From: Candidatus Woesearchaeota archaeon
GTDB lineage: Archaea; Nanobdellota; Nanobdellia; SCGC-AAA011-G17; JACPIM01
NCBI GenBank assembly: GCA_964513145.1
Contig: CAZELK010000001.1
Span: forward strand, 64,001 to 128,000
DNA: 64,000 nt
Reading direction: 5' to 3'
Part shown: piece after piece, positions 2,789 through 5,885 of the stretch
How positions within the stretch are numbered: the stretch's first letter is position 1
How the letters are laid out: every line of letters starts with the position of its first letter
The notes under the pieces: generated by a model
Told to the model about the DNA's origin: nothing
Databases searched by the model: none
Seen by the model: only the letters and a program-made list of their open reading frames with translations
Made by a program: the position numbers and the translations under genes

Positions 2789-3110
2789 TTTCTATTACCA
2801 CAAAATTTTTCATTTTTGAAATTGGCTTGCATTCCATAATTTTTACTATATCACCTATTTTTATGTCTATGCAAGGAGTGCTATGAACATGTATTCTTGA
2901 TTTTCTTTTTTCATATCTTTCATATTTAGGCAAGAAATGAAGCCTAGGAAATTCAACTTGTGCTGTTTTTGCTGAACTTACTTTAGTAATTTCTCCAGTA
3001 AACAAATTACCCCTTAATTTAAGTCCGCTATGGAATGGGCAATGCTTGTCATCACATTTCTTTATAGGTAATTTTACTTGTACTCCTATATTTTTTTGTT
3101 TTTCTTTCAT
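2775..3110 (-). CDS. rps17: 30S ribosomal protein S17 (uS17)
   Basis: CDDKHCPFH, KYERYEKR, GDIVKIMECKPISKMKNFVV. Confidence 0.97.
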   Translation of the reverse strand: MKEKQKNIGVQVKLPIKKCDDKHCPFHSGLKLRGNLFTGEITKVSSAKTAQVEFPRLHFLPKYERYEKRKSRIHVHSTPCIDIKIGDIVKIMECKPISKMKNFVVIENESS

Positions 3111-3675: not shown

Positions 3676-3895
3676 TCTTTTTCATACCTTTTCCTGAGTC
3701 TTTTGCTTGACTCTTTATTTTAGCTATTGTCAATATTCTTGCAATAGTTCTTCTTGTATTTTTTATTAGGGCTGGCTTTTCCAATGTGCTTCCCCTGGCT
3801 CTTTTTGCATTCAATATTATGAGTTCTTTTTTTAAATCTATTAACTTATTTTTCAAACTTTCCTCGCTTAGTTCTTTTATTTCACTTATTTTCAT
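3668..3895 (-). CDS. rpl29: 50S ribosomal protein L29 (uL29)
   Basis: [19 protein letters not shown]...[13 protein letters not shown]; ATG at 3895 preferred because the track's TTG at 3901 lies in the putative IS left end. Confidence 0.94.
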
Positions 3896-3896
3896 T

Positions 3897-3937
3897 GGCA
3901 AGGATACCCCATCAGCTTGCTGTGGGGAGGAATTGCC
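3897..3937 (+). repeat. IS left-end imperfect hairpin
   Basis: GGCAA..CCCCA-T-CAG-CTTG-CTG-TGGGG..TTGCC inverted repeat read directly from the sequence. Confidence 0.75.
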
Positions 3938-3948
3938 CCTTTGTTAAG

Positions 3949-3958
3949 TTTATAAATA
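3949..3958 (+). promoter_or_regulatory. Putative TATA box of tnpB (leaderless transcript, opposing the r-protein operon)
   Basis: TTTATAAATA ending about 20 nt before the tnpB ATG at 3979. Confidence 0.55.
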
Positions 3959-3978
3959 TTTAAATCCTGATAATTAAG

Positions 3979-5073
3979 ATGTTGATTAGGGCAACTGCAA
4001 AAATTAAGATTGAAACTAGACCTGAAATTATAGAAACTATTAGCCTCTATAGAAAAGGTCTGCAATTCTGTGTAAATTCTGCTTGGGAATTGAGGATTAA
4101 AAATAATATTAGATTGCATCCCTTTGTTTACAAAACTCTTAAAGAAAGTGGATTGCAAAGTCAACTGGCTATTGCATGTATTAAACAAGCCTGTGGGATT
4201 GTCAAAAAAGCCAAATCCAAACCGATTATTAATTTCTCTTTCATGGAATATGACTTCCCTAGGAGTGCTAGTTTCAAGAATAATATTTTGAGTCTTTCTA
4301 CAATAAAGGGCAGGATCAAGATTCCATTCCAAATCCCTGAATGCTATCAAATTTATTTTCAGGACTGGAGAGTTTGTGAAAGCATTTTGAACATTGACAA
4401 AAGGGGAAGATGTTTTTTTAATTTCAGTTTCTCCAAAGAGGTCAGCACAAAAGTCCCTAATCAACAATTCAGGGTTCTTGGTATTGATCTCGGAGTAAAT
4501 AATCTTGCTGTGACAAGTGACAACAAATTCTTCGGACAAAAGATTAAGCAACAAAGGATCAGGCATGATAAATTGATTAGTGAAATCCAAACTAAATGCA
4601 CAAAATCTGCTAAGAGAAAACTCAGAAAGATTTCTGGCAGATGGAGAAAGTTGATGGCTTGGACTAATCATAACATCAGTAAAAGTATTGTTGAACCATT
4701 GGATCAAGGAGATGTTATAGTAATGGAAGATTTGGTTAATATCAGAAAGACTGCTAAATACAATAAGTGGATTCATAAATGGGCTTTCTTCCAGTTGAGA
4801 AGCTTTATTGAATACAAAGCTTTCAGAAAAGGAATTAGGGTTGTCTATATTAATCCTGCTTATACTTCCAAAACTTGCAACAGATGTCATAATTTAGATA
4901 CCTCTAGACACAATGGTTTTTTCAAGTGCAATACTTGTAATCATTCCTTGAATTCCGACATTAACGGAGCAAGGAACATAGCTCAACTCTACACGAGTAA
5001 AATGAGCTTGGCTTTTGTAAACAAGCCAACTATAACATGTGATGATGCCAAAGCATCTACAATTTCCGTATGA
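3979..5073 (+). CDS. tnpB: RNA-guided endonuclease TnpB (364 aa)
   Basis: RuvC-I LGIDLGVNN, RuvC-II VIVMEDL, zinc finger TSKTCNRC...FKCNTC, RuvC-III NSDINGARNI; the catalytic D/E/D are all present. Confidence 0.96.
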   Translation: MLIRATAKIKIETRPEIIETISLYRKGLQFCVNSAWELRIKNNIRLHPFVYKTLKESGLQSQLAIACIKQACGIVKKAKSKPIINFSFMEYDFPRSASFKNNILSLSTIKGRIKIPFQIPECYQIYFQDWRVCESILNIDKRGRCFFNFSFSKEVSTKVPNQQFRVLGIDLGVNNLAVTSDNKFFGQKIKQQRIRHDKLISEIQTKCTKSAKRKLRKISGRWRKLMAWTNHNISKSIVEPLDQGDVIVMEDLVNIRKTAKYNKWIHKWAFFQLRSFIEYKAFRKGIRVVYINPAYTSKTCNRCHNLDTSRHNGFFKCNTCNHSLNSDINGARNIAQLYTSKMSLAFVNKPTITCDDAKASTISV

Positions 5074-5091
5074 TGAATTGAAGTTAAGCAT
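4894..5091 (-). other. Antisense ORF (65 aa), same frame as 3892-4890 and separated from it by one stop
   Basis: ATG 2 nt after the rps3 stop; the single stop is the reverse complement of the one TTA Leu codon of tnpB (4894-4896). Confidence 0.3.
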
Positions 5092-5154
5092 AGTTATAAA
5101 TGCCCCGCATCTTGATGCGATTGGTGTGGTTTACTTTCTGGTTTTACTTCTTTT
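5030..5154 (+). ncRNA. Predicted omegaRNA (reRNA) scaffold plus guide of TnpB
   Basis: TnpB omegaRNAs are known to derive from the 3' end of tnpB plus the right end; hairpin CGCAT-CTTG-ATGCG at 5106-5119; the guide would be the flank from about 5134. The 5' limit is a guess. Confidence 0.5.
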
Positions 5155-5885
5155 GTTTTTTTGGCACGAGTCTTTTTTGGCTTTTCTTCTTTTACCAATT
5201 CTTTAAGTTCTTCAACTGCCTTTGTATCCTCGATTTTTATTTCTTCTGCAGTTTTTTCAGATTCTTTTTTTAAAACAAGCTCTGCATTTTTATCTACTAT
5301 ATATACTCTATCAGGCAATGTTATATCTGGGGTCATTATACTAACTTTAATTCCGACAGTTCCGGATTTTAGGTTTGCTGTTGCTATCGCCCTTTTAATC
5401 TGATTAGCTGAAATATCCCCTGATTTTTTTAAATGGCCAGCTTTAAATCTCCAGCTTCTTGCCCTGGCACTAGGGACTTTTCCTGAAATTACTATTTCTG
5501 CTCCTGATGCGCCATGATCAAGAATGTCCTGCAATGTTTTGTATCCAATTGACTTGAATCTTTTAGAACCAAACTTTACCAATGTAGCTGATATTTTGTC
5601 AGCGACATAATAAGCGTCTAACATAGGGCTTTCTATTTCCCCAATTTCAATCTGGGGATTTTCCATTTTGAATCTTTTCTTCAATACATTTGTAAGTTTT
5701 TTTATGTTCTCTCCTTTTCTACCAACTACAAGACCAGGACGAGCTGTAAAAATTATTACTTTTTCTCCAAGGGGTGTTCTCTGTATTTCTATGTGGGAGA
5801 ATCCAGTTCCAACTAATTGAGATTTTATATGTTCTTGAACTTGAAATTCTTTTATTTTCTGGCTAACAAATTGTCTTTCTATCAT
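5094..5885 (-). CDS. rps3: 30S ribosomal protein S3 (uS3) with a K/E-rich tail whose last ~12 residues come from the IS
   Basis: IEIQRTPLG, RPGLVVGRKG KH motif, ISGKVPSARAR; tail SKPHQSHQDAGHL is encoded by the IS right end. Confidence 0.97.
   Translation of the reverse strand: MIERQFVSQKIKEFQVQEHIKSQLVGTGFSHIEIQRTPLGEKVIIFTARPGLVVGRKGENIKKLTNVLKKRFKMENPQIEIGEIESPMLDAYYVADKISATLVKFGSKRFKSIGYKTLQDILDHGASGAEIVISGKVPSARARSWRFKAGHLKKSGDISANQIKRAIATANLKSGTVGIKVSIMTPDITLPDRVYIVDKNAELVLKKESEKTAEEIKIEDTKAVEELKELVKEEKPKKTRAKKTKEVKPESKPHQSHQDAGHL

Follow-up and report, generated by a model that had tools for sequence, protein, structure and literature searches.

An open reverse reading frame opposite tnpB in a transposon lodged in an archaeal ribosomal-protein operon

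We analysed a stretch of 64,000 nucleotides (nt) from a Candidatus Woesearchaeota archaeon (GenBank assembly GCA_964513145.1, contig CAZELK010000001.1, positions 64,001 to 128,000), hereafter the window, in which a transposon carrying only tnpB separates the ribosomal-protein genes rps3 and rpl29. The strand opposite tnpB holds an almost stop-free frame in exact codon register with the gene. Comparison of this locus with its relatives establishes the anatomy of the element, a selection for an open frame that reaches the start codon of the downstream host gene, a placement reversed at coupled gene junctions, and a right end that supplies a stop to the upstream gene. On this comparative ground, we propose that the open reverse frame is probably a translational bridge which makes the transposon non-polar.

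Avoidance of reverse stops in tnpB and its relatives

A preliminary description of the window had traced, on the operon strand, a chain of coupled open reading frames (ORFs) from the rps3 stop through an ORF of 65 codons and one of 332 codons to rpl29. Every coordinate of this chain holds (Table 1). The gaps at its three successive junctions are 2 nt, 3 nt and -4 nt, the last being the overlap of the TGA of the main bridge ORF (3894-3892) with the rpl29 ATG (3895-3893) in the sequence ATGA. The same 4-nt overlap had been reported at four other junctions of the operon, and all four were located (5882-5885, 3107-3110, 1620-1623 and 952-955).

The tnpB gene was said to contain a single TTA, no CTA and no TCA for about 24 leucines, and the codon count agrees: these three codons, whose avoidance opens the register frame, occur 1, 0 and 0 times among 364 codons, which include 24 Leu and 29 Ser. 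For comparison, usage was determined in 696 long ORFs from the genome that contains the window (978 kb, 98.8% complete). TTA is indeed abundant in the host, where it represents 55% of Leu codons, while CTA represents 6.9% of Leu codons and TCA 28.6% of Ser codons. Together, they amount to 8.06% of all codons in the 696 ORFs. With 0.27%, tnpB is the most extreme of the 696 genes (the runner-up has 1.1%), and the probability of such an avoidance under host codon usage is about 1.7e-13. We also used an internal model that is independent of the host and relies on the A-ending usage of the gene in its other codon families. In tnpB, AAA, GAA and CAA outnumber their G-ending synonyms 52:16 and the four-fold families are 33% A-ending, whereas the TTA:TTG ratio is 1:13. 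This model predicts 18.3 TTA, CTA and TCA codons for 1 observed (P ~8e-12). The two remaining reverse frames of tnpB hold 46 and 17 stops. Given the internal model and these stop-filled frames, donor codon bias fails as an explanation.

We gathered 207 loci by whole-genome searches of relatives and by scans of genome and metagenome contigs. In the TnpB tree, 108 distinct proteins form one large clade; their identity to the query is 37-65%, and they originate from many Woesearchaeota and Nanoarchaeota metagenome-assembled genomes and from groundwater or sediment metagenomes, and mostly belong to DPANN archaea. The totals given here cover 102 of the 108 members; six with 5-34 stops (L009, L055, L083, L069, L182 and L195) were left out. 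As these six were chosen on the counted feature itself, the totals are slightly flattering; with all members in, about 269 stops are counted, which is still about six-fold under expectation. Over the 38,040 codons of the 102 members, 181 in-register reverse stops were observed for 1,582 expected. Moreover, 177 of these 181 residual stops lie within the last 65 codons, and the other 31,410 codons hold 4. The in-register run is open over at least 300 codons in 99 of the 102 members, with a reverse ORF of 330-380 codons. In contrast, more distant control TnpBs, some of them from the same genomes, display 597 reverse stops for 710 expected. Two distant paralogues from the genome of the window, which serve as within-genome controls, have normal numbers of reverse stops (26 for L002 at C7:14232 and 17 for L003 at C12:5714).

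The preliminary description had proposed comparing these codons in the register frame with the other frames and with a null, in the window gene and in its homologues, and this comparison gives a strong, frame-specific depletion. It had also raised the possibility that a donor codon bias produces an equal avoidance in homologues. The homologues do share the avoidance, but such a bias is ruled out because A-ending codons are otherwise common in these AT-rich genes (GC 0.29-0.52) and the other frames are full of stops.

The six nested clade members with many stops look like secondary losses. Among the high-stop exceptions, L010, L182 and L195 have a host-like low GC (0.26-0.29), L195 and L083 lie in looser intergenic surroundings, and L069 has a left neighbour on the same strand. 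The frame-losing copies (L182, L195, L010, L069, L083, L055 and L009) may be decaying or immobilised. L010, L182, L195, L069, L083 and L055 were inspected, and some of them have a looser or non-operon setting; this sample was too small to be used.

Outside this clade, several bacterial and other archaeal relatives (33-36% identity), from Parachlamydiales, Verrucomicrobiota, Acidobacteriota, Nitrospirae, Micrarchaeota and Methanothrix, have 1-5 reverse stops for 9-24 expected. A reverse ORF of 350-375 codons was found in L093 and L110 (Parachlamydiales), L090 (Verrucomicrobiota), L100, L106, L121, L118, L102/L103 (Methanothrix) and L096 (Micrarchaeota), and in L093, L090, L100, L106 and L096 it terminates at the ATGA of a host gene. 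As judged from these loci, the open-frame trait reaches beyond the DPANN archaea.

We then considered whether the frame or the encoded protein is selected. Codon choice was analysed between members 30-60% identical, at the sites where the TnpB residue is conserved. Over codons 1-295, codon identity is 0.50 in the clade (0.44 expected) and 0.44 in control TnpBs (0.41 expected). Over codons 306-364 of the clade it reaches 0.63 (0.445 expected), a raised value that was used as a positive control since the predicted omega RNA overlaps this region. Synonymous sites are thus near saturation and yet without reverse stops, so the frame is held by ongoing selection and not by common descent. In addition, the reverse proteins are mutually 27-47% identical, and the AlphaFold2 model of the reverse protein, built from a 41-sequence alignment, displays no fold (predicted local distance difference test, pLDDT, 37; predicted template modelling score, pTM, 0.15). 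These comparisons indicate that selection acts on the open frame and not on the sequence of the reverse protein. For the residual stops of the last 65 codons, a three-way constraint (protein, omega RNA and reverse frame) and a deliberate reset of incoming ribosomes are both possibilities.

Connection of the reverse frame to the host genes

The preliminary description had noted that the frame also stays open beyond tnpB, and this extends to the relatives: past the tnpB ATG, the register frame remains open over a median of 34 codons of the non-coding left end, versus 10 and 3 codons for the other frames. At 51 of 78 loci, this frame terminates in an ATGA on the target motif; 2 loci have a TAATG, and at 6 others the stop is at most 8 nt away from an ATG. 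Since the left ends differ widely in length (60-246 nt), the frame was preserved through insertions and deletions. The ATG of the motif is the true start of genes encoding PolD DP2, RtcB, glycosyltransferases, an NAD-dependent epimerase, RimK and an LPG synthase, and the Pfam profiles of these downstream host genes begin at residues 1-16. As a separate observation, the downstream host genes of L063 and L060 (a DHH/DHHA1 protein and RtcB) hold inteins with LAGLIDADG domains.

At the other end, most elements terminate in ..ATGTTAC, i.e. GTAACAT.. on the host strand. A long upstream host ORF is present at 37 loci, and at 33 of them it stops only 4 nt into the element. This is the frame expected from an ATGA overlap site, in which n1n2A-TGA becomes n1n2G-TAA. 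The window is among the four exceptions: its site was formerly a 14-nt overlap, and the upstream ORF reads 41 nt into the element.

Both neighbouring genes are reversed relative to tnpB at 44 of 56 loci, compared with 7 of 31 for the control TnpBs. Crossing the element requires a chain of 2-3 ORFs, versus about 12 in the controls, and the chain of the window is the tightest. The relatives therefore keep the antisense ORF (99 of 102), which mostly ends in ATGA at the target motif (51 of 78), and lie mostly between two host genes of reversed orientation (44 of 56), a point on which the preliminary description had called for comparison.

Finally, we looked for runs of A in tnpB, which are read as runs of T on the host strand. 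Oligo-T is the signal of archaeal intrinsic terminators. Runs of at least five A were found 285 times in the clade, for 601 expected from codon-order shuffles. The ratio of observed to expected runs is 0.47 for the tnpB genes of the clade, 0.81 for control TnpBs and 1.17 for host genes. By these ratios, T-run avoidance is a second, independent signature.

Limits of the element and its insertion into rps3

The features of the locus are collected in Table 1. The preliminary description had placed the junctions correctly. The limits of the element had to be revised: it extends past the end of rps3, whose stop therefore belongs to the element.

Table 1. Features of the element and of the host operon (positions in the window, unless a contig of the genome is named)
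Feature	Position	Strand	Description
tnpB, 364 aa	3979-5073	+	Pfam OrfB_IS605 and Cas12f1-like TNB domain
rps3, 263 aa	5885-5094	-	Pfam KH_2 and Ribosomal_S3_C; stop TAA 5096-5094
Short reverse ORF, 65 codons	5091-4894	-	ATG 2 nt past the rps3 stop
Main bridge ORF, 332 codons	4890-3892	-	ATG 3 nt past the stop of the short ORF; in tnpB codon register
rpl29, 75 aa	3895-3668	-	Pfam Ribosomal_L29; first gene downstream of the insertion
TnpB-only IS200/IS605-type (IS1341-like) element, 1,239 bp	3896-5134	+	Reversed in the ribosomal-protein operon
Target motif (target-adjacent motif, TAM) TTCAT	3891-3895	+	Reverse strand ATGAA, containing the rpl29 ATG and the bridge-ORF TGA
Left-end imperfect palindrome/hairpin with conserved GGATACCC motif	3896-3939	+	Compensatory stem changes between loci, by eye
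TATA-like A/T box, near-palindromic, presumed tnpB promoter	3949-3965	+	From sequence; about 14-30 nt before the tnpB ATG
Predicted omega-RNA scaffold over the tnpB 3' end	4894-5134	+	5' limit uncertain; fold, synonymous conservation, stop clustering
Right-end terminal hairpin	5104-5125	+	Covariation at 6 of 7 predicted pairs (9 relatives)
Flank expected to match the omega-RNA guide, TTTCTGGTTTTACTTC	5135-5150	+	Antisense to the rps3 3' end; predicted
Distant TnpB paralogues of the same genome (G000), 28-32% identical	C7:14232-14870; C12:5714-6310; C7:19233-19802		

The left end begins directly after TTCAT, as in the relatives, most of which have TTTCAT or TTCAT before their left end. In the subclade of the window, the right end proceeds from the tnpB stop through a conserved GCATAGTTA box and the hairpin to a terminus ..GGTTTAC that can be aligned with the relatives. 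A right end at 5097, with an ATGA empty site, was rejected, as the conserved hairpin and the ..GTTTAC terminus of the relatives lie further out. When the element is excised in silico, ..CCA GAA A joins ATGAAAATAAGTGA, which restores an rps3 tail ending in ..KPENENK before the stop and a 14-nt overlap with rpl29. Three genomes of the same genus show this pattern, with rps3 ending in ..IENENK or ..ENENQ before the stop and a 14-nt overlap with rpl29, and the rps3 relatives align only up to residue ~253. The rebuilt empty site contains no duplicated bases, which fits the peel-and-paste transposition of IS200/IS605 elements.

The last 13 rps3 codons and the stop (5134-5094) lie in the right end: the insertion swapped the last four rps3 codons for 13 element-encoded codons and an element-encoded TAA. 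The 13 C-terminal residues of Rps3 (SKPHQSHQDAGHL) are thus transposon-derived and replace the genus-typical NENK in an essential ribosomal protein.

The left end of the window copy is unusually short, with 6 nt from CAT to GGATACCC versus 13-14 nt typically, and this copy may be less mobile. The left end of L081 (CAT-TAAAGT-TGGCAA..) is very similar, that of the window (CAT-TGGCAA..) being shorter by 6 nt. Despite this difference, both reverse ORFs end in a stop/start overlap, ATGA in the window and TAATG in L081. We also considered GGATACCC, which reads GGGTATCC on the host strand, as a Shine-Dalgarno sequence for the host gene. This candidate was dropped: paired by hand with a 16S 3' end that does not come from this genome, it has two mismatches, and it usually lies 13-14 nt from the ATG. 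A box that resembles the TATA-like one, 'tttataaata', is also present in relatives.

The TnpB of the window matches PF07282 (1.4e-21) and PF01385, and neither of the two window reverse ORFs matched Pfam. Its RuvC residues (D170, E250 and D327) and its zinc-finger cysteines (C300, C303, C317 and C320) are intact, and they are invariant across the clade alignment. The omega-RNA region has an RNA fold z-score of -3.8, and the synonymous positions of codons 306-364 are conserved above expectation. The Rfam scan of positions 3700-5300 at E <= 1 gave no match. The predicted guide was placed on the IS200/IS605 model, in which the guide is the DNA flanking the right end, and on the boundary at 5134. 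For the Y1 transposase TnpA (PF01797), no match was found in the 98.8% complete genome, and the element itself carries tnpB only and is therefore non-autonomous, like most elements of the IS1341 type. The window tnpB is single-copy in its genome, next to the three distant paralogues. Outside the window, the region C1:5,000-24,000 of G000 contains a run of genes low in TTA, CTA and TCA (e.g. 3 out of 268 codons for C1:8433-9239 and 6 out of 322 for C1:22640-23608), which could reflect a foreign island or a high level of expression.

A proposed translational bridge, its alternatives and its meaning

The reading that we consider probable is that the open reverse frame makes the insertion non-polar. 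TTCAT being the reverse complement of ATGAA, copies lie just upstream of a start codon and reversed to that gene, typically in the 4-nt ATGA stop/start overlap of two coupled genes. The right-end ..GTTAC (GTAAC on the host strand) hands the truncated upstream gene a new TAA. The avoidance of TTA, CTA and TCA keeps the host-strand frame open over ~310 tnpB codons and the entire left end, and the bridge frame closes with the TGA that shares its ATGA with the host start codon. Host transcripts would read through the element, and ribosomes coming from the upstream gene would restart on the reverse ORFs and terminate at the downstream start codon. By this use of the reverse frame by ribosomes, polarity would be prevented: both the translation-dependent shield against premature termination or decay and the termination-reinitiation of the next gene would be kept. 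Both Haloferax and E. coli have been shown to use termination-reinitiation at ATGA overlaps, a process restricted to genes that overlap or are separated by very short gaps (PMC6728339, PMC10666635).

The ribosome relay put forward in the preliminary description is supported by comparative anatomy, but as a property of the family and not as an adaptation to this operon. The clade appears to have evolved towards translational transparency. A broader proposition, which we hold with a little less assurance while still leaning towards it, is that of a cross-domain TnpB lineage whose translational transparency would combine ATGA sites set by the TAM, a right-end stop, a stop-free and T-run-poor bridge, and a recreated coupling.

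Several observations weigh against such a bridge. The six nested clade members mentioned above lost the reverse frame (5-34 stops), and 19 of the 78 loci have a stop inside the left end or no nearby ATG. Near the right end, most relatives show gaps of 20-40 nt and irregular short ORFs, and are thus loosely bridged. Outward firing from the near-palindromic TATA-like box of the left end could be enough to express the downstream genes. Moreover, the loci are related, and a few have the same insertion in common, so that the counts overstate their independence.

An unlikely alternative, although the best placed of those we weighed, is that reverse translation serves the element itself. Ribosomes would coat the read-through RNA, which is complementary to the tnpB mRNA and to the omega RNA, and would block duplexes, RNase attack or silencing. 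An open frame of unconstrained sequence, whose product does not fold, fits any model where translation itself matters, and the elements do lie reversed in transcribed operons. A precedent also exists in ambigrammatic narnaviruses, where the reverse ORF has been proposed to serve ribosome loading (PMC8316113). Nevertheless, the omega-RNA region, which contains 177 of the 181 residual stops, is the one least covered by the frame, and this alternative leaves unexplained both the opening of the frame through the left end to the exact host ATG and the supply of an upstream stop by the right end.

The 332-codon reverse ORF could instead be a genuine overlapping gene that provides the transposon with a functional accessory protein, which we find improbable. 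Its length is conserved (330-380 codons), its start usually corresponds to the CAT (His) codon of the second CxxC motif (87 of 102 members), and the frame is kept over more than 50% protein divergence. However, codon choice is nearly free, close to that of the controls, and the reverse proteins diverge among themselves and have neither a predicted fold nor a Pfam match, as reported above. In addition, the C-terminus is dictated by the host target motif, and the conserved His may serve the zinc finger.

Outward promoters are common in insertion sequence (IS) elements, and the TATA-like box at 3949-3965 is near-palindromic and only ~55 nt from the rpl29 ATG. The downstream genes could thus be expressed from the left end, the open frame being a by-product or a relic with no role in the operon. 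This seems very improbable to us, since such a promoter gives no reason for the near-absolute stop avoidance over 31,410 codons, for the left-end frame or for the avoidance of T-runs. We count an origin by chance, or from the codon usage of a donor genome, as refuted. Long in-register reverse ORFs do arise without selection in GC-rich genes, but the genes are here AT-rich and favour AAA, GAA and CAA over their G-ending synonyms while avoiding TTA, the avoidance is confined to one frame, and this frame is open in the non-coding left end too.

The proposed translational bridge has partial counterparts among known systems. The element resembles the TnpB-only (IS1341-type) members of IS200/IS605, such as ISDra2 and ISGst, by its RuvC triad and zinc finger, its hairpin-bearing ends, its insertion 3' of a 5-nt motif without target duplication, and the structured RNA region, predicted here, over the tnpB 3' end (bioRxiv 10.1101/2023.03.14.532601; PMC4615843). 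TTCAT is a proven TAM of the IscB of ISGst5, in the same IS family (bioRxiv 10.1101/2023.03.14.532601). Unlike the elements described in the searchable literature, the clade of the window combines an in-register reverse ORF with T-run avoidance on the reverse strand, and lies reversed at start codons and ATGA junctions with a right end that gives the upstream stop. It is also similar to ambigrammatic narnaviruses, which carry a reverse ORF opposite the gene for RNA-dependent RNA polymerase: the register frame is opened by avoiding the same three codons and is kept among relatives, the reverse protein is seemingly non-functional, and translation rather than its product is thought to be important (PMC6884476, PMC8316113, PMC8155312). 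The difference is that the window element is a DNA transposon of cellular genomes, whose ORF is bounded by host genes on both sides. IStrons, in which a group I intron is fused to IS605 or IS607 TnpB elements, splice out of RNA when inserted in sense orientation and thereby lower the cost of insertion, whereas the window element would stay in the RNA and be translated across. The overlaps or 2-3 nt gaps found at every window junction are those of ATGA/TGATG termination-reinitiation pairs (PMC6728339, PMC10666635). In contrast to the usual coupled pairs, one partner is here a bridge frame on a mobile element and not a gene. In the searchable literature, we found no earlier account of a reverse-frame design for TnpB or for any insertion sequence.

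Some consequences are practical. Gene callers may choose the wrong strand in such elements or extend host genes into them, as the rps3 tail illustrates. The comparative data also define, for this clade, a TTCAT TAM and a compact right end that could be of use in TnpB genome editors. In archaea, translation-dependent transcription termination and termination-reinitiation could be tested cleanly with these elements, which would be a natural tool for both. If the proposed bridge is correct, the ambigrammatic narnaviruses would have, for the first time to our knowledge, a counterpart in cellular DNA, and its concrete purpose, the continuity of an operon, may illuminate their unsolved case. The mobile element would also escape its own polarity by a new route, being translated across instead of spliced out or kept to safe sites, a third strategy beside neutral-site targeting and self-splicing as in IStrons. 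In tiny genomes packed with genes, a transposon with an RNA-guided nuclease would live at near-zero cost inside essential operons (ribosomal proteins, PolD, RtcB), which would explain how TnpB elements survive in genomes almost devoid of intergenic DNA.

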